The notes under the pieces were generated by a model. It was not told where the DNA came from. It did no database searches and was given only the letters and a program-made list of their open reading frames with translations. From Escherichia coli (lineage in GTDB: Bacteria; Pseudomonadota; Gammaproteobacteria; Enterobacterales; Enterobacteriaceae): a stretch of 64,000 nt of DNA. The stretch lies in assembly GCF_002854065.1 (NCBI RefSeq), contig NZ_CP024147.1. One strand, 5' to 3'. Below, piece by piece: positions 9,828-30,260 of this stretch (the first letter of the stretch is position 1; the number at the start of each line of letters is the position of its first letter). Made by a program: the position numbers and the translations under genes.

Positions 9828-9857
9828 TAGTCTGATTTCGCACAGCAATAAAGAGAA

Positions 9858-9890
9858 TATGGGCCGAATGAAATTCCCCGGCCCTTGTTT
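9858..9890 (+). terminator. Intrinsic terminator after ybeL
   Basis: GC hairpin gggccg-loop-cggccc followed by a T-run (ttgttttta), directly downstream of the ybeL stop. Confidence 0.5.
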
Positions 9891-9896
9891 TTATCT

Positions 9897-10880
9897 CTAC
9901 AGTAAATCTTCAGTCTCACGAATTTCCTGACTGACATCTCTGGTTCCGGATGACTGAACTTTACGATACAGGTCGAGAGCCTGTCGGAGATCGACAGGTC
10001 TTCCTTCTCCGTAGTGATACATAATGGCCAGGTTATACCAGGCAGTGGCGTCATTGCATTCAGCGGCTTTCGTAAACCATTCAAAGGCAGCCTGATAATC
10101 TTTCTCAACGCCTTGTCCGTGTTTATACATATAACCGATGTTGACGTAAGCGCCGACGCTCCCCTGAGCGGCAGCCTTCAGATACCAGTACATCGCTTGC
10201 TTATAGTCCTGGTCCACCCCTTCGCCAGCGTTATAATCCCATGCAATTTGAAACTGAGCATGCCGATTACCCTGCTGTGCGCTTTTCAAATACCAGAATG
10301 CGGCGAGTGTCTCGTTTTGAGCAACGCCTTTTCCGTCTTCATAAAGATCGGCCAGATTGTTTTGCGCGTCACTATGGCCTTGTAATGCAGCTTGTTTGTA
10401 CCAGAAAAATGCCAGCGTATAGTCTTGTGCGACTCCGTTGCCATTTCTGTACATCCACCCAAGATTATTTTGCGCATAAGACATTCCGCTCTCCGCGGCT
10501 ATCTGATACCAGGCAACCGCTTCTTTATAGTTGGGGTCTTCTCCACGATCCAGTATCCAGCCAAGGGCGTTGGAAGCGAAAGTATGGCCTTGTAGGGCAG
10601 CTTTTTTCAGCCAGAAGATGGCTTGCTCATTATCTTTATGACGGCTTTTATCCTCGGTATACTTTTGCCCTAAGGAATACTGTGCTTCACAATGACCTTG
10701 CTCAGCGGCCAGCTTCAGCCAGTAAAAGGCCTTTTCGTCGTCCGGAGAGTCAATTGCGCTATCGCGATTATAATAAAACCCAACAATATATTGAGCCTCA
10801 CTATCGCCTTGTTCAGCACGTTCGATAATCTCATCTATTGACAAATTATCGCAGCAACTTGACGTAAAAATCATTATCAT
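9897..10880 (-). CDS. ybeQ: Sel1/TPR-like repeat protein
   Basis: 327-aa ORF made of repeated Sel1-type units (recurring A..W..KAA.QG...AQ..LG..Y motifs). Confidence 0.85.
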   Translation of the reverse strand: MIMIFTSSCCDNLSIDEIIERAEQGDSEAQYIVGFYYNRDSAIDSPDDEKAFYWLKLAAEQGHCEAQYSLGQKYTEDKSRHKDNEQAIFWLKKAALQGHTFASNALGWILDRGEDPNYKEAVAWYQIAAESGMSYAQNNLGWMYRNGNGVAQDYTLAFFWYKQAALQGHSDAQNNLADLYEDGKGVAQNETLAAFWYLKSAQQGNRHAQFQIAWDYNAGEGVDQDYKQAMYWYLKAAAQGSVGAYVNIGYMYKHGQGVEKDYQAAFEWFTKAAECNDATAWYNLAIMYHYGEGRPVDLRQALDLYRKVQSSGTRDVSQEIRETEDLL

Positions 10881-11037
10881 TTCCTTATGGTTGCAGATAA
10901 AAGATATTATATTTTTATGTGTTCCGTTTTTGCGTAAGTCTTATTTTATGCGTATTATGTTGTGTCGGAAAAGTATAAATAAATGAGCCTCGTAATGTAG
11001 TTTACATTCATTAAATGAATGTTTAAGGATAAATTAT

Positions 11038-11745
11038 ATGGACATAGAGTCGCAAAAAATATTGTTTGCACTTTCCACTCCGATGGAAATACGCAATGAA
11101 TGCTGTTTACCTTCGCATTCATCCCCCAAAATGTATTTAGGTACATGCTTTTTTGACCTTTCTTCCTCCTGGGGAATTGATGACCGTGATGACCTGCTGC
11201 GCACAATTCACCGAATGATCGATAACGGTCATGCCGCGCGGTTGGCAGGGTTTTATCACCGCTGGTTTCGTTATTCTCCATGTGAATGGCGTGACTATCT
11301 TGCTGAATTAAATGAGCAAGGTCAGGCTTATGCGCAATTTGTCGCCAGCACAGCCGAATGCTGTGGTGAGGGAGGAATTAAAGCATGGGATTATGTCCGG
11401 ATGGGTTTTTTAAGTCGAATGGGCGTACTTAATAACTGGTTGAGTGAAGAAGAAAGTCTATGGATCCAGTCGCGTATTCATCTACGGGCTCTACGTTATT
11501 ATAGTAACTGGCGGCAATACTTTGCCGGTTATACCTTTGGTCGGCAATATTGGCAGTCTCCCGAAGATGATAATCTGCCTTTATTACGTGAATTCTTAGC
11601 GCGTAAAGAATACGACGATTCCGGCAATGATATGTTTTATCAATTATTTGCCAGTGATGATGCGTATTACCCTACCTTGTCCTGGCAACCATTGGCTTAC
11701 TATTCTGCATGCCCGGAAACGCTTAAGGATATGAGCGACCTATGA
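11038..11745 (+). CDS. ybeR: DUF1266 family protein
   Basis: 235-aa ORF, paralogous to the ybeU product in this window (shared [20 protein letters not shown] core); stop overlaps djlB start. Confidence 0.85.
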
Positions 11746-13169
11746 AAAATTGCTGGAAGATCCTCGAAATAGAGGAAACGACTGACGTCGATATTATCCG
11801 CCGCGCTTATCTGGCGCTGTTACCGTCCTTTCATCCAGAAACCGATCCGCAGGGTTTTAAACAACTTCGTCAGGCGTATGAGGAGGCGCTACGGATTGCG
11901 CAGTCGCCTGCTAAATCTGTTTGGCAACCAGAAGAATATGAGGTAGCAGAACATGAAATTCTGCTCGCCTTTCGTGCGTTACTTGCCTCTGATAGCGAAC
12001 GTTTTCTGCCCTCCGCCTGGCAGCGATTCATTCAGCAATTAAATTATTGCTCGATGGAAGAGATTGATGAATTACGCTGGTCGCTGTGCACAATCGCCAT
12101 GAACACTGCCCATTTATCCTTCGAGTGCGTGGTGTTATTAGCAGAAAGATTGCGGTGGTTGCAGGAGGAAAACGTCGGGGAAATAGACGAAGAAGAACTG
12201 GAATCCTTTTTATATGCCATTGCGAAGGGGAATGTTTTTAACTTCCAGACCATTCTGCATCTGCCCGTTGCCGTGCAAAATGACACCATCGATTTTTACC
12301 AAATGTTCGCTCGGATTTGGTCATCGCATCCAGAATGGCTGACATTGTATTTAGCGCAACATCGCGCAGTGATTATCCCCGATGATGCAAAACTGCACAG
12401 AAATTTACTCCGCTGGTATAGCGCAGGTCGCCTGGGAATTCCCGAACTCCTGGATTACGCCCGGTCGTGGCGGGAAGCTGAACCTGATAATGAAGATGCG
12501 CGTTATTATGAATACGCGCAACGCGTCTATTGTGGAGAAGGCGAAAGCCTGCTGGCAGAACTTTGTGACTACTGGCACGAGTATCCCTCCACTCAGGCGG
12601 ATGCTTTAATGTTGCAATGGTGCCGTCAGCATCGAGTCGATTATTACCCATTAGTGGTGATGATGATTGAAGCTCGCGAACTGGTTAACGACCAGGGAAA
12701 ACCGCTACTTTATGTCCCCGGCGACAGCGCCCGTACGCGTTTTCATTTATACGAAATACTCAGCGATGAAAAACTCTCTGCGCTGGGGCGTTCACTGGTC
12801 GAGATGGTTTTGCACAAAGGACGTAAGCCGCGGATCTCACTCAAGCGTGATACAGAACATACCTTATGGCCATTATATCTAGTTGCCAAACAATTAGTGC
12901 AGGCCAGCCAACCTACAGAAGAATCATTAATGCCGATTGTAAGCCGTCTTGATGCAGAAGATCGTTGTCCACTGGAAGCATTAATTATTCGTCGATTATT
13001 AATTCAGGCGGCGAATTTTACCGAGAAGCAGACTGTTGAACCGGAGCCGCAACCGCAGCCAATGCCCGTTGCCGATGGTGGGCCAGGCTGTCTGGGCATC
13101 ATTAAAATTATTTTCTATATTTTTATCTTTGCTGGTTTGATAGGGAAAATACTCCATCTGTTCGGGTGA
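11742..13169 (+). CDS. djlB: Tail-anchored J-domain-like co-chaperone DjlB
   Basis: 475-aa ORF; N-terminal J-like domain with HPETDPQG in place of HPD, C-terminal hydrophobic anchor ([19 protein letters not shown]); paralogue of DjlC. Confidence 0.85.
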
Positions 13170-13178
13170 CAGTCGACG

Positions 13179-13733
13179 TTAATGTGCGGGAAGCCCGGCA
13201 AGTAATCTTTCCGCATTTTTGTAATGTTGTTTGGCGGCCAGTTTTAACCATTTTTGAGATTCATAATGGTTAACATTAATACCTGAGCCATTTCTGTAGA
13301 TCAAACCTAAAGTATATTGAGCATGAGCATACCCTTGTTCAGCTGCTTCCTTATACCAGAGAATTGCTTTACGGGTGTCGGGTTTGACCCCCAGACCTTT
13401 GAGGTAGATCCACCCCAGTTTACTTTGCGCGCGTGGATTTTCCTGTTCCGCTGATTGCTCATACCAGTATCTCGCCTGTGTATAATCCAGTGGTTTACCG
13501 TCGCTACCATGAAGATAAAATTCTCCAAGGCGATATTGCGACGTTGAGTGACCATGAATCGCGGAAAGCTCCGTGGCTGCCGTGGTGAATGGAAGACTGC
13601 CCGGTGAGCTTAAATAATCAAAGGCATAATTCACCATGGCTTTATCACGCAACGTCGTTTTCTTGGGTTGGCTAATACAGGTAATTGCTGCAACTATAAA
13701 AATTGCGAATATATACATTAATTTTTTATTCAT
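13179..13733 (-). CDS. ybeT: Sel1-repeat protein with signal peptide
   Basis: 184-aa ORF; N-terminal hydrophobic signal-like segment then Sel1-type repeats. Confidence 0.82.
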
Positions 13734-13834
13734 GTGTGAATGCTTCGATTTTCTTTTTATTTTGAAAGCGTCAAGTTTATACTCATCAATAATAAAAAAG
13801 TAGTCAGTTAATGCACTTAAGGGATTATTAACAA

Positions 13835-14542
13835 ATGAATAAGGAAGAACAATATTTTCTTTTTGCGCTTTCTGCGCCCATGGAAATACTTAATCAGGGT
13901 TGCAAACCCGCGCATGACTCGCCAAAAATGTATACCGGGATAAAAGAATTCGATCTCTCATCATCCTGGGGAATAAATAATCGTGATGATTTAATTCAGA
14001 CTATTTATCAGATGACTGATGATGGTCATGCTAATGATTTAGCTGGCTTATATCTGACATGGCATCGCTCTTCCCCTGAAGAGTGGAAAGCATTAATTGC
14101 TGGTGGCTCGGAGAGAGGGTTGATTTATACCCAATTCGTTGCCCAAACCGCTATGTGCTGTGGAGAAGGGGGAATCAAAGCTTGGGATTATGTTCGAATG
14201 GGGTTTCTGTCACGGGTCGGTGTGCTCAACAAGTGGCTGACGGAAGACGAGAGTTTATGGCTGCAATCGCGCGTCTATGTACGAGCTCACCATTACTATC
14301 ACAGCTGGATGCACTATTTTTCTGCCTATTCACTAGGGCGTCTCTACTGGCAATCTTCTCAGTGCGAAGACAACACTTCGCTACGCGAGGCGCTAACCCT
14401 GTACAAATACGATAGCGCCGGGAGTCGTATGTTCGAAGAACTGGCAGCGGGAAGCGATCGTTTCTATGCCACGCTTCCCTGGCAGCCATTAACTGTCCAG
14501 CCTGAATGCCCGGTAACGCTTAAGGATGTGAGCGACCTATGA
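13835..14542 (+). CDS. ybeU: DUF1266 family protein
   Basis: 235-aa paralogue of YbeR; stop overlaps djlC start. Confidence 0.85.
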
Positions 14543-15990
14543 AAACATGTTGGCAAATCCTCGAAATTGAAAGCACGACGCAAATAGACATTATCCGCCA
14601 GGCTTATCTTGCTCGCTTACCGTTATGTCATCCCGAAACCGATCCGCAGGGGTTTAAAGCATTACGCCAGGCCTATGAAGAGGCCCTGCGACTGGCGGTA
14701 AATCCTGTCGAGGAAGCAGATGATGAAGAAAAAGATGCCGCCGCTGAACATGAAATACTACGTGCATTCAGGACATTACTGGATTCAGAAAGTGATCGTT
14801 TTCAGCCTTCCGCCTGGCAGAAATTTATTCAGCAATTAAATACCTGGAACATGGAGGATGTCGATCAATTACGCTGGCCGCTGTGTGCAATCGCTATAGA
14901 AGCGCGATATCTTTCATTAAATTGTGCTTCTTTGCTGGCAGAGCGTTTGAACTGGCATTCGTTTAATGACAGCGAAGGAATAGATGAGGAAGAAAGGGAG
15001 GCTTTTCTTGAGGCCATTCAGGCTGGTGATTGTTTCGATTTCCTTAGCCTTCTGGAATATCCCATTGCGTTGCAGAACCAGACTGTTGAATATTACTTCG
15101 CGCTGGAACGTTGCTGTCGTTACCATCCTGACTATGTCACTGCGTTTTTGGCGATGGCAGGTCCGTGGTTAATTCCTGATGATGCGAAGTTGCATCGCAA
15201 ACTGTTGCGCTGGTACTGCTCGGTGCAAACAGGTATGGCGGAACTCATTCCTGTTGCCCAACAGTGGCAAACGGAAGAACCAGAAAGCGAAGATGCCCGG
15301 TATTACCAGTGTGCACAACGTTTGTACTGCGGCGAGGGGGAAAGCCTGCTTGCCGATCTCTGCGCGTACTGGGGAAGTTACCCATCTACACAAGCCGATA
15401 ATTTGTTGTTGCAGTGGAGCGCACAACATTGCCCGGATTATTTCGCGTTATTAGTGATGGTTATCGAAGCGCGGAGCATGGTAGATGCGCAAGGTAAACC
15501 GTTGAAATATGTTCCTGGTGAGAGCGCCCGGACGCGTCTGTTATGGGCGGAAATTTTACATAGCGGAAAACTATCGCCGTTAGGTCAATCGTTTATTGAG
15601 TCGCTATTCTTCAAACGCAAAGCATGGGCGTGGTGGAAATCGAGAGTCGGTAGCGAGACAGAAGAAGATTCACCGTTACTGGATTTGTATCGGGTAGCGG
15701 AACAGGTAGTACTTGAAGCGTTTCCGAAACAAGAGATGCTGGCCCGTCTTAATACAAGGCTGGAAGGCGGAGATGCTCATCCATTAGAGGCCATTATCAC
15801 CCGGATGCTGTTGACGAAAGTAAAACTCGAGCCGGAGGATGAAGATGTCGATGAGCCAACACCTGAAAACCATGAAGAAAAAAATGATGAGGATGAAAAA
15901 CCACAGAGCATTACCAGCATTATCAAAATCAGCTTAACGGTGCTGGTGATAGGTTATGCTCTCGGCAAAATCGCGATGTTGTTTAGTTGA
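14539..15990 (+). CDS. djlC: Tail-anchored J-domain-like co-chaperone DjlC
   Basis: 483-aa ORF; N-terminal J-like domain ([22 protein letters not shown]), acidic linker, C-terminal membrane anchor. Confidence 0.85.
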
Positions 15991-16003
15991 CGATGTGTTT
16001 TTT

Positions 16004-16046
16004 GCGCCGATGCCGGATGCAGCATTTACGCCGCATCCGGCAGCCG
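16004..16046. repeat. REP (repetitive extragenic palindrome) between convergent djlC and hscC
   Basis: gccggatgc...gccgcatccggc palindrome typical of enterobacterial REP units. Confidence 0.7.
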
Positions 16047-16049
16047 TGA

Positions 16050-17720
16050 TTATGGGATCTCAATGGCTAAATAAACGCTCGCCCGCCGCCTGACCTCATC
16101 GACGCGGGCCATATCGTTTGACTGCAGCGCCGCATCAAAATCGGTGATCACCCGGCCAATCTCTTCTCGCTCGTCACCCAGCGCCCGCGCCCACAACTCT
16201 TCCAGTTTGGCTTTAAAGGTACGATTGATGAGCATATCGCGCGGATAAATTTTCAATGCGGATAACCGCGTCCGACTCTCTTCAATCTGCTGCGCGCTCA
16301 ATGTTACCGGGCTGTGGTTAATCACTCTGGACTTAACGCTGCCGTCTTCCAGAAGCACGTCAACTTCAAGCAAGCCGTTGATATCATAACTAAAGCGAAT
16401 ATCAATCGACTGATAAGCTCCGGTTTTCTTCAACGGCACATCGAAGGATTCCACCAGAATGTTATTTTTAACTTTGTGGTTTTCTCCCTGATAGACGTTA
16501 ACCGTAATAGAATCCTGTTCCGGGTGCATGGTCGAGTAAGTTTCTACACGCGACACCGGTACTGTGGTGTTTCGTTCAATAATCGGCGAGAAAATGCCGG
16601 AAACGCCCTGGCGGTTAACTTCAACGCCCAACGAGTAAGGGCAAATATCAGTGAGGATCACTTCTTCAATATCTTCACTGCGTAAGCGGCAGGCGGCCTG
16701 GATTGCTGCGCCCAGCGCGACAATGGTGCTCGGATCGTAACTTTGATACGGTAATTTGCCAAACAGACGCACGGCGATTCGCTGCACCAGCGGCATTTGT
16801 GACGCGCCGCCAACCAGCACCAGACTGTCGATCTGACTCGGCTTCAGACGCGCATCGCGCAATGCCTGTTCAATCGGCACTCGCAAGCGGTTAAGCAGAG
16901 GCAACCACAAATCTTCCAGTTCGTTCTCGTAAAATTCGCACTCCAGCGTTTCTTCCTGGTACTGCCAGCGAATGTGCATTGGCAATTGATTGCTACATTT
17001 TGCCGCTTCCACACAGGCGTACAGGGCAGCCAGTTCGCTCTCGTTAAGGGCTGTTTTGGCGACTTCCGCGCGTTTTAAAACTTCATCGACCAGCATATGA
17101 GTAAAATCTTCGCCACCGAGGAAGTTATCGCCCGCTGAGGCGTGAACTTCAATCACCGGCGTGGCGTACTCAAGCACCGTAACGTCAAACGTGCCGCCAC
17201 CGAGATCAAATACCAGCGAGCGGGTGTTTTGTTGGGTATGCAGGCCATACGCCATCGCAGCTGCCGTTGGCTCATTAATCAGGCGAACTGCATTTAAACC
17301 GGCTAACTCCGCTGCTAAACGGGTATGCTTGCGTTGTTCATCGCTGAAATAAGCCGGAACAGAGATCACCACATCTTTAATCGGACGTTGCAGAAATTCT
17401 TCGGCATCTTCTTTTAATGAACGTAATACCAAAGAGGACAGTTCTGGCGCGTTAAATGTGTCGCTGCCTAACCGCCAGTTGGTATTACTGCCCATTGCAC
17501 GTTTAAATAACGCTGCCGTTTTATCCGGATGCGAAGTACGCCGTGATACAGCCGGTTTTCCGACTAAAATATGATTATTTTCATCCATGCTAATTATGGA
17601 TGGTGTTAAATATTCACCGAACTTATTTGGAATTAATTGCGCGGCACCGTCTTTCCAGACGGCAATTAAACTATTGGTAGTACCGAGATCGATACCAATG
17701 GCGAGTTCTGCATTATCCAT
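16050..17720 (-). CDS. hscC: Hsp70-family chaperone HscC (Hsc62)
   Basis: 556-aa ORF with Hsp70 ATPase signatures (IGIDLGTTNS; DLGGGTFD). Confidence 0.92.
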   Translation of the reverse strand: MDNAELAIGIDLGTTNSLIAVWKDGAAQLIPNKFGEYLTPSIISMDENNHILVGKPAVSRRTSHPDKTAALFKRAMGSNTNWRLGSDTFNAPELSSLVLRSLKEDAEEFLQRPIKDVVISVPAYFSDEQRKHTRLAAELAGLNAVRLINEPTAAAMAYGLHTQQNTRSLVFDLGGGTFDVTVLEYATPVIEVHASAGDNFLGGEDFTHMLVDEVLKRAEVAKTALNESELAALYACVEAAKCSNQLPMHIRWQYQEETLECEFYENELEDLWLPLLNRLRVPIEQALRDARLKPSQIDSLVLVGGASQMPLVQRIAVRLFGKLPYQSYDPSTIVALGAAIQAACRLRSEDIEEVILTDICPYSLGVEVNRQGVSGIFSPIIERNTTVPVSRVETYSTMHPEQDSITVNVYQGENHKVKNNILVESFDVPLKKTGAYQSIDIRFSYDINGLLEVDVLLEDGSVKSRVINHSPVTLSAQQIEESRTRLSALKIYPRDMLINRTFKAKLEELWARALGDEREEIGRVITDFDAALQSNDMARVDEVRRRASVYLAIEIP

Positions 17721-17803
17721 TGCATTTATATCTTGAAAGAAAAAGAGATAAACAGATTAAGACCACCCAGGTAACGCGTGGTGATCTTAATCAATGACGT
17801 GTG

Positions 17804-21005: not shown

Positions 21006-21165
21006 CCAGAAAAAAGAGGGTAGCAGCGTTAACTGCTACCCTCGAAGATTGTTACCCAGCGTATTGCGGTTTTCAGGCCCGATGGGGAACGACCATCAGG
21101 CGTATAGTCTGTCCGTGCTACGTAACAATTGAGAGGGCTGGAATTTCCGCCCCTGGTTCTTGTAA
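21006..21165 (-). ncRNA. sroC: Probable SroC sRNA (gltI 3'UTR / gltI-gltJ spacer fragment), ending in an intrinsic terminator
   Basis: 169-bp non-coding spacer between gltI stop and gltJ start, where E. coli SroC is described; contains hairpin gagggtagcag-cgttaa-ctgctaccctc (21016-21043) followed on the minus strand by TTTTTTCT. Confidence 0.45.
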
Positions 21166-22074
21166 TTAGTTCAGTGCCTTGTCATTCGGTTCTTTGAACA
21201 GTGCTTTCATTTCGTCTGACAGTTCGAAATTCATGTTCAGGTTTTTCGGCGGAATTGGATTTTTGAACCATTTATCAAACCATTTTTCCGCTTCACCGGA
21301 GGTCTGCACCTGAGCGATGGTGTCATCCATCAGCTTTTTGAACTGCGGATCGTCTTTACGCAACATGCAACCGTAGGCTTCCTGAGACTGCGGCTTGCCG
21401 ACGATATCCCAGTTGTCTGGTTTCTTCGCTTTCGCACGTTCACCGGCCAGCAGGGCATCATCCATCATAAAGGCAACGGCACGACCGCTTTCCAGGGTGC
21501 GGAAAGAGTCACCGTGATCTTTGGCGCTGATGATGCGCATATTCATTTTTTGCTCTTCATTCAGTTTGTTGAGCAAAACTTCAGAGGTAGTGCCGGAAGT
21601 GACGACTACGGCTTTGCCTTTCAGGTCGGCAAAATCTTTGATATCGCCGCCCTTTTTGGTCAACAGGCGCGTACCGACCACGAAAATAGTGTCAGAGAAA
21701 GCCGCCTGTTTTTGGCGTTCGACGTTGTTGGTGGTAGAACCACATTCAAAATCGAAAGTGCCGTTTTGCAGAAGAGGAATACGGTTTTGTGAGGTGATCG
21801 GAATCAGTTTCACCTGCAAGTCCGGTTTGTTGAGTTTCTTTTTCACTGCTTCAACAATGGCGTTGGAGTAATCCTGCGAATAACCCACCACTTTTTGCTG
21901 ATTGTCGTAATAAGAGAAAGGTACTGAAGATTCACGGTGACCGACGACAATCACGCCGTTTTTGGCGATTTTGTCCAGCGTACTGCCCGCTGCCGGGGCG
22001 GCGTCATCTGCCTGTGCCAGTCCTGCGGAAAGCGCAAGGGCCAGGATTGCTGTGGCAGGTTTACGTAATTGCAT
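21166..22074 (-). CDS. gltI: Glutamate/aspartate periplasmic binding protein
   Basis: Start set at MQLRKPATAILALALSAGLAQA (signal peptide; 302 aa); the ORF track extends 25 codons upstream. Confidence 0.9.
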   Translation of the reverse strand: MQLRKPATAILALALSAGLAQADDAAPAAGSTLDKIAKNGVIVVGHRESSVPFSYYDNQQKVVGYSQDYSNAIVEAVKKKLNKPDLQVKLIPITSQNRIPLLQNGTFDFECGSTTNNVERQKQAAFSDTIFVVGTRLLTKKGGDIKDFADLKGKAVVVTSGTTSEVLLNKLNEEQKMNMRIISAKDHGDSFRTLESGRAVAFMMDDALLAGERAKAKKPDNWDIVGKPQSQEAYGCMLRKDDPQFKKLMDDTIAQVQTSGEAEKWFDKWFKNPIPPKNLNMNFELSDEMKALFKEPNDKALN

Positions 22075-29557: not shown

Positions 29558-29632
29558 TGGCTGGGGTACGAGGATTCGAACCTCGGAATGCCGGAATCAG
29601 AATCCGGTGCCTTACCGCTTGGCGATACCCCA
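29558..29632 (-). tRNA. glnX: tRNA-Gln (anticodon CUG)
   Basis: 75-nt reverse-strand cloverleaf sequence, anticodon loop UUCUGAUU, ends CCA. Confidence 0.95.
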
Positions 29633-29669
29633 ACTGGGTGCACTTACAAGGTAAGCGTCTTGAATAAAT

Positions 29670-29744
29670 TGGCTGGGGTACGAGGATTCGAACCTCGGAA
29701 TGCCGGAATCAGAATCCGGTGCCTTACCGCTTGGCGATACCCCA
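29670..29744 (-). tRNA. glnV: tRNA-Gln (anticodon CUG)
   Basis: Exact repeat of the glnX sequence. Confidence 0.95.
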
Positions 29745-29791
29745 ACAAATTGGTTTTGAATTTGCCGAACATATTCGACACATTCAGAATT

Positions 29792-29868
29792 TGGTGGCTA
29801 CGACGGGATTCGAACCTGTGACCCCATCATTATGAGTGATGTGCTCTAACCAACTGAGCTACGTAGCC
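29792..29868 (-). tRNA. metU: tRNA-Met elongator (anticodon CAU)
   Basis: 77-nt sequence whose reverse complement reads GGCUACGUAGCUCAGUUGGUUAGAGCACAUCACUCAUAAUGAUGGGGUCACAGGUUCGAAUCCCGUCGUAGCCACCA. Confidence 0.95.
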
Positions 29869-29883
29869 AGATTGTTTCTTCGA

Positions 29884-29958
29884 TGGCTGGGGTACCTGGA
29901 TTCGAACCAGGGAATGCCGGTATCAAAAACCGGTGCCTTACCGCTTGGCGATACCCCA
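29884..29958 (-). tRNA. glnW: tRNA-Gln (anticodon UUG)
   Basis: 75-nt Gln tRNA with anticodon loop UUUUGAU; same acceptor stem as glnX/glnV. Confidence 0.95.
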
Positions 29959-29992
29959 ATAACCGGGCGGTGAACCGCTTACTCGAAGAAGA

Positions 29993-30067
29993 TGGCTGGG
30001 GTACCTGGATTCGAACCAGGGAATGCCGGTATCAAAAACCGGTGCCTTACCGCTTGGCGATACCCCA
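29993..30067 (-). tRNA. glnU: tRNA-Gln (anticodon UUG)
   Basis: Repeat of the glnW sequence. Confidence 0.95.
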
Positions 30068-30090
30068 TCCGTACAACGCTTTCTGGTGAA

Positions 30091-30175
30091 TGGTGCGGGA
30101 GGCGAGACTTGAACTCGCACACCTTGCGGCGCCAGAACCTAAATCTGGTGCGTCTACCAATTTCGCCACTCCCGC
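30091..30175 (-). tRNA. leuW: tRNA-Leu (anticodon UAG), class II tRNA with long variable arm
   Basis: 85-nt sequence; reverse complement starts GCGGGAGUGGCGAAAUUGG and ends ...CCCGCACCA. Confidence 0.93.
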
Positions 30176-30183
30176 AAAAAAGA

Positions 30184-30260
30184 TGGTGGCTACGACGGGA
30201 TTCGAACCTGTGACCCCATCATTATGAGTGATGTGCTCTAACCAACTGAGCTACGTAGCC
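30184..30260 (-). tRNA. metT: tRNA-Met elongator (anticodon CAU)
   Basis: Identical to the metU sequence; first gene of the operon. Confidence 0.95.

Follow-up and report, generated by a model that had tools for sequence, protein, structure and literature searches.

Gene content of the ybeL-rihA block

The window analysed here is a stretch of 64,000 nucleotides of Escherichia coli DNA, which carries a block of seven genes between ybeL and rihA (Table 1). The coordinates and strands assigned to these genes in a preliminary description agree with the list of open reading frames, and the gene names were right, the same region, at 100% identity, being annotated on an E. coli chromosome as ybeQ, ybeR, djlB, ybeT, ybeU, djlC and hscC. 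The stop codon of each DUF1266 gene had also been said to overlap the start codon of the following J-protein gene, as is found for ybeR/djlB (4 nt, ATGA, 11742-11745) and alike for ybeU/djlC (14539-14542), and the convergent orientation of hscC and djlC is borne out by coordinates and strands. The spacer between the two latter genes comprises 59 bp with a GC content of 59%, and the REP-type palindrome within it probably forms, judging from its sequence, a shared transcript end of djlC and hscC. A scan for promoters and terminators returned sites no commoner than in shuffled sequence.

Table 1. Genes and other features of the block between ybeL and rihA; positions are those of the window.
Feature	Position	Strand	Description
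Whole insertion/deletion block	9829..17797		From the ybeL stop to the rihA end; defined by empty-site strain L003
ybeQ	9897..10880	-	Sel1-repeat protein, 327 aa; RefSeq start 2 codons downstream
Divergent ybeQ/ybeR control region	10881..11037		26.8% GC
ybeR	11038..11745	+	DUF1266 protein, 235 aa, all-alpha
djlB	11742..13169	+	HPE J-protein with putative TPR-like helical domain and C-terminal tail anchor; PF27158 DjlB_C_2nd (precomputed Pfam)
ybeT	13179..13733	-	Short Sel1-repeat protein, 184 aa; between both DUF1266-J pairs
Divergent ybeT/ybeU control region	13734..13834		27.7% GC
ybeU	13835..14542	+	DUF1266 paralogue of ybeR
djlC	14539..15990	+	HPE J-protein, paralogue of djlB; predicted TPR-like solenoid and tail-anchor helix; published HscC co-chaperone
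REP-type palindrome	16009..16041		In the convergent djlC/hscC spacer; read from sequence
hscC	16050..17720	-	Specialised Hsp70, 556 aa

The duplicated unit

The block had been described as a tandem duplication of a three-gene unit consisting of a Sel1, a DUF1266 and a J-protein gene, but the unit that is duplicated comprises two genes only, encoding the DUF1266 protein and the J-protein. In-register similarity of DNA and protein, with a period of 2797 bp, is restricted to ybeR-djlB versus ybeU-djlC, and the paralogue pairs are related yet diverged, as had been proposed, with YbeR and YbeU 59% identical without gaps and DjlB and DjlC 51% identical. YbeQ and YbeT, on the other hand, are unlike in length and N-terminus and display only generic similarity at the level of the Sel1 repeats (about 35%), out of register with the 2797-bp period, and the repeat search gave other spacings for their matches. 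The divergent promoter regions of ybeQ/ybeR and ybeT/ybeU could not be aligned and show no homology. Likewise, Salmonella and Citrobacter harbor the same DUF1266-J duplication at the same site in the order Sel1, DUF1266, J, DUF1266, J, HscC, the pairs being 11 nt apart and neither ybeT nor any other second Sel1 gene being present, and relatives of YbeT at least 71% identical are annotated from Escherichia only. Thus, even though the order Sel1 (minus), DUF1266 (plus), J (plus) is found twice in E. coli and the island is AT-rich, a tandem duplication of all three genes following recent horizontal acquisition is very improbable, given also that the site was already occupied before these genera split.

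HscC and its J-proteins

The Hsp70 of the block, which is named hscC in RefSeq, belongs to the HscC subfamily and is distinct from both DnaK and HscA, as its best NCBIfam models are those of DnaK (388 bits) and HscA (380 bits) and the respective cut-offs of 648 and 709 are far from reached; an identity to DnaK of about 28% is given in the literature. When an EEVD-like tail, to which a TPR or Sel1 protein might attach, was sought in HscC, the C-termini were found to be conserved within genera, with no clear acidic motif. DjlB and DjlC both display HPE instead of HPD in their J domains (FHPETDP and CHPETDP, respectively), a motif already noted in the literature (PMC13254874, PMC10410713). The link of HscC to both J-proteins made in the preliminary description holds for DjlC, for which it has been published and is not new: in the account of Kluck (2002) given in a review (PMC8215388), DjlC stimulates the ATPase of HscC, whereas DnaJ, CbpA and HscB do not. 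For DjlB the link is assumed from similarity.

The tail anchor attributed to the J-proteins is supported by single hydrophobic segments close to the C-terminus of DjlB (450-468) and DjlC (464-482) and by a confident terminal helix in the DjlC model, and membrane insertion of DjlC as a tail-anchored protein has been published (PMC8215388). From its structural model, DjlC is predicted to consist of a J domain, a TPR-like solenoid and a tail anchor. The long J-proteins of other genera (880-960 aa) end in a DUF805 domain, and only the first approximately 315 residues of DjlB and DjlC are common to them.

A conserved module of DUF1266, HPE J-protein and HscC

A scan of one genome per species with a DUF1266 profile from a narrow alignment yielded 78 loci; the single peptide pattern of this alignment undercounts the family. 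The main new result of this work is a conserved three-gene module, in which a DUF1266 protein, an HPE J-protein and HscC are found together in all 74 loci that are not cut short. These 74 complete loci are distributed over Escherichia, Klebsiella, Erwinia, Rahnella, Pectobacterium, Brenneria, about 55 species of Pseudomonas and Marinobacter, and more distant DUF1266 proteins form part of such a trio in Vibrio aerogenes and, with another gene order, in Clostridium carboxidivorans. Since the flanking genes vary between genera, with housekeeping neighbors in other genera, the trio represents the conserved unit. The DUF1266 stop codon overlaps the J-protein start codon in each of the 85 gene pairs, by 4 nt in 79, by 1 nt in five and by 10 nt in one; the HPE motif is present in 84 of the 85 J domains, the Hsp70s are orthologous to HscC, with 47-76% identity to the E. 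coli protein, and each DUF1266 paralogue keeps its own J paralogue across genera. The combination is also found in a single chain, as the Paenibacillus protein P0357 carries DUF1266 together with TPR repeats and a DjlB-like J domain of the HPE type. The Clostridium J-protein also includes TPR repeats, and as a membrane anchor is absent from it, membrane tethering is not universal.

The synteny that the preliminary description proposed as a check is therefore strong for these three genes and does not extend to the Sel1 genes, which accompany the module in Escherichia, Salmonella and Citrobacter only, with ybeT confined to Escherichia. Both Sel1 proteins contain tandem repeats of this type: precomputed PF08238 (Sel1) matches exist for YbeT and for a ybeQ remnant, RefSeq names YbeQ a Sel1 family protein, and both match NCBIfam Sel1-type models (such as MerG, MotX and AlgK), all below cut-offs. 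YbeT displays an N-terminal hydrophobic segment (residues 5-23) and YbeQ none. The YbeQ orthologues of Salmonella and Citrobacter are just 51-54% identical to it, and YbeQ may be regarded, from sequence and distribution, as an accessory, lineage-restricted partner.

The DUF1266 proteins and their predicted complex with the J-protein

YbeR matches PF06889 (DUF1266) with an E-value of 2.8e-46 over model positions 2-175 of 175, and YbeU belongs to the same family by its identity to YbeR. The domain is all-alpha and without a solved structural relative. Residues H65, D118, R121, R127, E139 and several tryptophans are invariant, and the C-termini are conserved and acidic. When YbeU and DjlC were modelled as one chain joined by a linker, using a genome-paired alignment, the prediction for the 748 residues reached a pLDDT of 83.6 and a pTM of 0.75, a value hard to attain unless both proteins are placed in one confident frame. 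Based on this single fused-chain prediction, DjlC is probably in complex with YbeU. In Firmicutes, DUF1266 is also fused to domains of a cell-surface type (Cu_amine_oxidN1, SLH, LRR_5), which indicates that it is not associated with an Hsp70 system in every context. The literature searched gives no role for DUF1266, YbeQ or YbeT, in agreement with the earlier statement that the roles of these partners are unassigned. A group of 193-aa DUF1266 proteins annotated as "putative tRNA ligase" was considered as a third paralogue and rejected, as they are truncated ybeU alleles.

Composition, age and loss of the block

The block has a GC content of 46.8%, against 51.2% for the window, of which it is the lowest 7.8-kb stretch, and the AT-richness claimed for its intergenic regions is evident in both divergent control regions (Table 1). 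The GC3 of its genes is 0.38-0.47, compared with 0.59-0.67 in leuS, ybeL and gltJKL (0.52 in rihA). The horizontal acquisition suggested from such composition stands in an ancient sense only and fails as a recent event. In fact, the ybeL-rihA site is occupied by the block in four genera, namely Escherichia, Salmonella, Citrobacter and Klebsiella (K. spallanzanii, in which the module adjoins ybeL), and no hallmark of mobility, whether integrase, tRNA target or flanking direct repeats, was found in the list of open reading frames, the repeat search, the Rfam scan or the indel junctions. Comparison of E. coli lineages with sister Escherichia species gave dN/dS values of 0.02-0.06 for hscC, 0.05-0.10 for ybeR and ybeU and 0.10-0.20 for djlB and djlC, all well below 1 and thus indicative of purifying selection.

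Among complete E. coli genomes, about 68% carry the full block, about 14% a partly deleted one and about 18% none of it, which makes about 32% with some or all of the block missing. In the empty-site strain L003, the match to the window runs to 9828 and resumes at 17798. Considering the shared site, the missing mobility genes and flanking repeats and the purifying selection, this polymorphism is best read as deletion. The E. coli and Salmonella proteins share 83% identity in the case of HscC, 58-65% in that of DUF1266 and 45-56% in that of Djl, as compared with 92-93% for YbeL and RihA, which flank the block; at the level of sequence, the putative motor HscC is conserved and its partners are diverging. 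The matches of the module to E. coli "plasmids" are mostly chromosome-sized records or fragments, and the only plasmid cases that look genuine are those of Erwinia persicina. Extra open reading frames of no recognised family gather at the site in relatives, with no match in NCBIfam or PADLOC.

A putative membrane-tethered Hsp70 machine

We hypothesize, with a probability of roughly 0.55, that the block encodes a dedicated membrane-tethered Hsp70 machine in which the DUF1266 protein is an unrecognised subunit, and that it constitutes the third Hsp70 system of E. coli in its complete form. HscC would be the single, shared ATP-driven motor, and DjlB and DjlC would act as co-chaperones held on the cytoplasmic side of the inner membrane; both would combine a J domain of the HPE type with a TPR-like alpha-solenoid and an anchor at the C-terminus, the latter corresponding in most other Gammaproteobacteria to a predicted multi-pass DUF805 domain. 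YbeR and YbeU are expected to be made in fixed proportion to their own J-protein via the overlapping stop and start codons, and each DUF1266 protein may bind its cognate J-protein at the latter's conserved N-terminal part and serve as the subunit that gives it specificity or an adaptor. The one motor would in this way be served by YbeR-DjlB and by YbeU-DjlC, two diverged adaptor pairs that presumably originated from an old two-gene duplication, and YbeQ and YbeT could be repeat scaffolds that joined later in particular lineages and extend or adjust the set of binding partners.

A different and clearly less probable role for the DUF1266 protein is that of a dedicated client, handed over as YbeR or YbeU by DjlB and DjlC to HscC for remodelling or activation at the membrane, like IscU for HscB-HscA. 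The three proteins HscA, HscB and IscU, an Hsp70 with its J-protein and client, are dedicated to iron-sulfur cluster assembly, and the module mirrors the isc operon in that a specialised Hsp70 is encoded together with a J-protein exclusive to it and one more conserved partner, with no general chaperone role. The fidelity of each DUF1266 paralogue to its J paralogue across genera would also suit a client, and the polar and aromatic residues that are invariant could belong to the active site, or to a ligand site, of a protein with a function of its own. Nevertheless, the partner families of both systems are unrelated, the J-protein is here membrane-anchored and predicted to be repeat-rich, and no pathway is connected with the module. 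Moreover, J domains are normally fused to a client-binding part, as in class C J-proteins (for example PMC8215388), and DUF1266, being naturally fused to a J domain and TPR repeats in one lineage, looks more like a client-binding module than a client, which favors an adaptor. The fixed 1:1 synthesis via overlapping codons is likewise typical of the subunits of a complex.

The speculation of the preliminary description, a conflict-related system, takes the form of an anti-phage or envelope-attack response in which chaperones would detect an invader at the membrane and their partners, evolving fast, would bear the mark of an arms race. An AT-rich block under the control of H-NS, SlyA and LeuO, as reported in the literature, resembles foreign DNA, and its presence/absence polymorphism, the divergence of the partners relative to their neighbors at the syntenic site (45-65% versus 92-93% identity to Salmonella), the extra open reading frames in relatives and the plasmid-borne module of Erwinia persicina point in the same direction. 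In the literature ybeT scored in a phage TraDIS screen, but the ybeT knock-out behaved as wild type with the phage of that screen. Furthermore, the seven proteins gave in PADLOC-DB 2.0 only marginal, chance-level matches of the Sel1 proteins to PtuA, with no stretch passing, the extra open reading frames in relatives are equally without a PADLOC match, no effector domain is recognisable, and in PHROGs matches are limited to generic Sel1 and Hsp70 proteins, with none for DUF1266 or Djl. Taken with housekeeping rather than defence neighbors in other genera, a site filled in four genera, a module present in dozens of Pseudomonas species and gene-wide dN/dS of 0.05-0.20, these results render a conflict system unlikely. 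The GTPase/Hsp70 conflict systems described by Kaur et al. (2020) have a different architecture.

It is just as doubtful that the block is in E. coli a cryptic, decaying remnant without present function, in which case conservation elsewhere would say little about this species. During growth the module proteins do not reach the detection limit (PMC8215388), the block is H-NS-silenced in laboratory growth and dispensable according to the literature, and decay would explain its absence or partial deletion in the genomes counted above as well as the truncated ybeU alleles. All seven genes are, however, intact in most genomes, dN/dS of 0.02-0.20 denotes purifying selection, and deletion phenotypes, namely sensitivity to Cd2+ and a UV phenotype, have been published (PMC8215388). 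With no greater probability, the trio, together with its Sel1 additions in Escherichia, might be a membrane surveillance device rather than a housekeeping chaperone, in which DUF1266 and the scaffolds recognise a foreign or damaged protein at the inner membrane and HscC triggers a protective or suicidal response; such a device would account for H-NS silencing, for partners that diverge fast and for a block that is often lost.

The dedicated Hsp70 machine proposed here occupies the same locus as the published HscC-DjlC pair (Hsc62-Hsc56; Kluck et al. 2002; PMC8215388), in which, in the account available from the review, HscC is the Hsp70 and DjlC its tail-anchored ATPase stimulator. As published, this system has two components in the literature searched, and a survey of J-proteins (Barriot et al. 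2020) may already note the DUF1266 neighborhood. In contrast to that pair, the module described here contains an invariant DUF1266 third gene with overlapping codons across many genera, its J-protein is predicted to be TPR-like, and the Sel1 genes are lineage-specific additions. The architecture predicted for DjlC, a J domain with a TPR-type solenoid in one protein, would resemble that of the eukaryotic DNAJC7/TPR2 and DNAJC3/p58IPK, in which the solenoid binds partners and the J domain fires Hsp70. DjlA, a membrane-anchored class C J-protein of E. coli (see PMC8215388), similarly brings an Hsp70 to the inner membrane, but its anchor is N-terminal, its motif is HPD, its partner is DnaK, and neither a DUF1266 gene nor a dedicated Hsp70 is known to adjoin it.

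HscC, a little-studied Hsp70, was described more than 20 years ago, and its published picture consists of HscC and DjlC. If DUF1266 is an obligate third part, earlier biochemistry used an incomplete machine, and the search for clients gains a handle through YbeR and YbeU. The association also provides a first functional context for the Pfam domain DUF1266, which, from Clostridium to Pseudomonas, is recurrently combined with J domains and TPR-type repeats, either in separate genes or in fused form.

Table. Genes of the ybeQ-hscC block (window positions)
Gene	Position	Strand	Description
ybeQ	9897-10880	-	ORF; Sel1-repeat protein
ybeR	11038-11745	+	ORF; DUF1266 protein
djlB	11742-13169	+	ORF; HPE J-protein
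ybeT	13179-13733	-	ORF; Sel1-repeat protein
ybeU	13835-14542	+	ORF; DUF1266 protein
djlC	14539-15990	+	ORF; J-protein
hscC	16050-17720	-	ORF; Hsp70

Gene content of the block

The block is flanked by leuS-ybeL and rihA-gltLKJ and aligns at 100% identity with an annotated E. coli chromosome bearing the ybeQ-hscC gene names, which match the gene list given in the preliminary description; the coordinates and strands of its seven ORFs were likewise exact. YbeR is a full-length DUF1266 match (Pfam, E 2.8e-46), and residues 4-47 of DjlB give a weak DnaJ match in which HPE replaces HPD. HscC scores far under the DnaK and HscA cut-offs, in accordance with its initial description as a non-canonical Hsp70. 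The overlap of the DUF1266 stop with the J-protein start, also seen beforehand, is 4 nt at both ybeR/djlB and ybeU/djlC, where the junction reads CTATGAAA. A REP-type palindrome (TGCCGGATGCAGCATTTACGCCGCATCCGGCA, window 16009-16041) occupies the convergent djlC/hscC spacer, and an Rfam scan gave no match inside the block. The old product name of ybeU and ybeR in some records and papers, "predicted tRNA ligase", was unsupported in every search run.

A proposed dedicated Hsp70 machine with a putative third subunit

Already in the literature are the HscC-DjlC pair, which the preliminary description had noted, the tail anchor and the Cd2+ and UV phenotypes (PMC8215388), as well as the HPE motif (PMC13254874 and PMC10410713). 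Within the literature searched, no paper was found that discusses DUF1266, YbeR/YbeU or YbeQ/YbeT in relation to HscC. What appears to be new is an invariant DUF1266 partner coupled to the J-protein, the broad distribution of the DUF1266/J/HscC trio, the predicted TPR-like nature of the J-protein and the DUF805 form of its anchor, a J-TPR-DUF1266 fusion, and a duplication history corrected to two genes. We hypothesize that the system is a dedicated Hsp70/J-protein machine with a previously unrecognized third subunit, DUF1266, which would make the question of HscC function more directly testable.

A DUF1266 profile scan of one genome per species (100,044 species) yielded 78 loci, the ORFs of which were searched locally with the E. 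coli proteins. DUF1266 and a DjlB/DjlC homologue, both on the plus strand, were found together with an HscC orthologue in all 74 loci not cut short, and this is the outcome of the gene-neighbourhood analysis proposed in the preliminary description. The trio is present in Escherichia, Klebsiella, Erwinia, Rahnella, Pectobacterium, Brenneria, about 55 Pseudomonas species and Marinobacter, HscC being convergent in all but the latter, and its Hsp70s share 47-76% identity with E. coli HscC; the published identity between HscC and DnaK is ~28%. Vibrio aerogenes has a more distant DUF1266 protein within the same trio, and in Clostridium carboxidivorans an Hsp70, a J-TPR protein and DUF1266 follow each other in that order on a single strand. 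The flanks vary by genus (nitrate/nitrite reductase, a PAS-GGDEF-EAL protein, rlmJ, glutathione reductase, methionine aminopeptidase), and therefore the trio is the unit. The Sel1 genes, initially included in the cassette, do not share this synteny, as a search as permissive as E 1e-3 gave no Sel1 protein in the loci of any genus other than Escherichia, Salmonella and Citrobacter.

The J-protein has a length of 880-960 aa in all but the enteric short forms, its homology to DjlB/DjlC being confined to the first ~315 residues (the J domain and the first helical part), and HPE is found in 84 of the 85 J-proteins paired with DUF1266. The C-terminus of the long form is a DUF805 membrane domain (Pfam, E 1.8e-7), and the same fragment is labelled DUF805 by RefSeq in Erwinia. 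DjlB and DjlC end in one hydrophobic helix instead, consistent with published work in which DjlC behaves as a tail-anchored protein (PMC8215388). The Clostridium J-protein has Pfam TPR matches and no anchor. On the Erwinia persicina plasmid p_Cp2 (L092, 6998-10361) the annotation splits the long J-protein into four pieces, of which the final one is named DUF805.

Putative role of DUF1266

Four findings suggest that DUF1266 and the J-protein are physical partners. The adjacency of their genes is invariant and the codons overlap, by 4 nt in 79/85 pairs, 1 nt in five and 10 nt in one. Likewise, each DUF1266 paralogue has kept its own J paralogue through the divergence of Escherichia, Salmonella and Citrobacter. 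In Paenibacillus, a single polypeptide of 497 aa (P0357; L085, 233-1726) contains DUF1266 as well as a DjlB-like HPE J domain and TPR repeats. Finally, the structure predicted for a fused YbeU-DjlC pair reached a pTM of 0.75 over 748 residues, a value that would hardly be attainable unless more than 483 residues, the length of DjlC, were placed in one frame. Some Paenibacillaceae records show this cluster with the J domain and DUF1266 on separate proteins.

By analogy with IscU, DUF1266 could be a client of the machine, and we regard this as a serious rival. Nevertheless, J domains are usually fused to the client-selecting part, and consequently the P0357 fusion favours DUF1266 as a putative adaptor or specificity subunit rather than a client. 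The domain has invariant or near-invariant residues (W45, H65, W117, D118, R121, R127, E139, W158, Y161, G168, W172 and W216) and a conserved acidic C-terminal tail. Among the longer proteins of the DUF1266 alignment (A3, P0276-P0357), it is fused to Cu_amine_oxidN1 (7/40), TPR (4-5) and LRR_5 (two), and also to SLH and peptidase M54, and one protein has two DUF1266 domains. DUF1266 thus also serves in probable cell-surface proteins of Firmicutes, and these fusions suggest a general binding module, probably recruited by the HscC system. In such a machine, residues 1-315 of the J-protein, common to all, would be the candidate site for the constant partners HscC and DUF1266, and its variable rear part, together with the Sel1 proteins, may provide lineage-specific contacts.

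Duplication history

The preliminary description regarded YbeR/YbeU and DjlB/DjlC as diverged paralogues, and in fact these are 59% (zero gaps) and 51% identical, respectively. The DNA repeats at 11681-12100 and 14478-14897 (two repeat families) are 74-77% identical and spaced by 2797 bp, exactly the offset of the ybeU start from that of ybeR and of the djlC start from that of djlB. The proposed three-gene unit must however be reduced to two genes, DUF1266 and J-protein, since the in-register repeat takes in this pair only and the Sel1 genes do not fit. YbeQ (327 aa) is devoid of a hydrophobic segment, whereas residues 5-23 of YbeT (184 aa) form one; their similarity is ~35%, in several alternative repeat registers, and their DNA matches are spaced by 2526 and 2847 bp as compared with the 2797-bp repeat. 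No alignment was found between the two AT-rich divergent intergenic regions (ybeQ/ybeR and ybeT/ybeU).

At the same site, Salmonella enterica and Citrobacter amalonaticus present the order Sel1(-), DUF1266, J, DUF1266, J, HscC(-), with 11 nt between the first J gene and the second DUF1266 gene and ybeT absent. YbeU and DjlC are 64-65% and 56% identical to the second pair of these genera, against 60-63% and 45% for the first, and YbeR is nearer to the first pair. This weak but consistent positional orthology places the two-gene duplication before the Escherichia/Salmonella/Citrobacter split and makes ybeT a later Escherichia addition; YbeT relatives of at least 71% identity carry annotations from Escherichia only. 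The positive charge around the hydrophobic segment of YbeT is balanced (+3/+3), and neither a standard lipobox nor a signal-peptidase site was found at its N-terminus; the Sel1 repeats may be cytoplasmic or periplasmic. One published table lists YbeT as an outer-membrane protein.

Age and constraint

The GC content of the block is 46.8% against 51.2% for the window, the lowest of any 7.8-kb stretch within the 64 kb, and the divergent intergenic regions are at ~27%, in agreement with the AT-richness noted beforehand. GC3 is 0.38-0.47 in the block genes and 0.53 in hscC, compared with 0.59-0.67 in leuS, ybeL and gltJKL and 0.52 in the adjacent rihA. In published transcript data, ybeT and ybeU-djlC are listed in the H-NS and LeuO regulons, and their transcripts increase upon SlyA over-production (PMC5797941); a DUF1266 gene of strain 042, not mapped to this locus, was up ~300-fold in one of two temperature columns of an hns table (PMC7582179).

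Among 5426 complete E. coli genomes, ~3697 have at least 80% of the block, ~750 a shorter form, and ~980 lack it wholly. One shorter form among those sampled, seen in urinary isolate 81009 and an O25:H4 strain, lacks window 10235-13041, which removes ybeR completely and the greater part of both ybeQ and djlB. A truncated ybeU of 193 aa (L086, 8001-8582) in some strains already partially deleted indicates that the second unit also decays. In empty-site strains the ybeL-rihA gap is 36 bp with a REP-like palindrome (L003, 4530-4565) different from that of the djlC/hscC spacer. The indel junctions lie at window 9828 and 17798, where neither direct repeats nor mobility genes were found. The polymorphism is best explained by deletions of an ancestral block, because the same site is occupied in Salmonella, Citrobacter and other Escherichia species; in Klebsiella spallanzanii a single DUF1266-J-HscC set adjoins ybeL. 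Hence, of the horizontal acquisition initially suggested, the foreign-looking composition stands and a recent event does not, and any horizontal origin would predate the divergence of these genera. The module can travel, as it is found on non-mobilizable plasmids of 130-165 kb in Erwinia persicina.

The E. coli and Salmonella versions of YbeL and RihA, which flank the block, are 92-93% identical, those of HscC 83%, of the DUF1266 proteins 58-65%, of the J-proteins 45-56% and of YbeQ 51%. In a comparison of E. coli lineages with sister Escherichia species, dN/dS was 0.00-0.05 for flanking genes, 0.02-0.06 for hscC, 0.05-0.10 for ybeR/ybeU, 0.06-0.14 for ybeQ/ybeT and 0.10-0.20 for djlB/djlC. 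All genes are therefore under purifying selection and are not pseudogenes, but constraint on the HscC partners is several-fold weaker than on the HscC motor.

The speculation that the block is a conflict system draws on its AT-richness, silencing, presence/absence polymorphism and the fast divergence of the HscC partners, but has a low probability, given that none of the seven proteins has a credible PADLOC match, nor do the extra ORFs at this site in relatives, that PHROG gave no match to DUF1266 or Djl, that no effector domain was found in the block nor defence-type neighbours in other genera, and that a single phage-screen hit in ybeT failed to recur with a knock-out.

The ybeL-rihA site gathers extra ORFs in relatives, with no match to NCBIfam or PADLOC: two Djl-like ORFs upstream of ybeQ in Escherichia sp. 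MOD1-EC7003 (L008, 4445-5800), a 314-aa ORF in Citrobacter amalonaticus (L006, 7205-8149) and a 412-aa ORF in the hscC-rihA interval of Salmonella (L004, 15399-16637). Elsewhere in the window, the small RNA sroC (21008-21170, minus strand), beside the glt transporter genes, and a cluster of seven tRNA genes (29561-30260, minus strand) are ordinary for this E. coli region.
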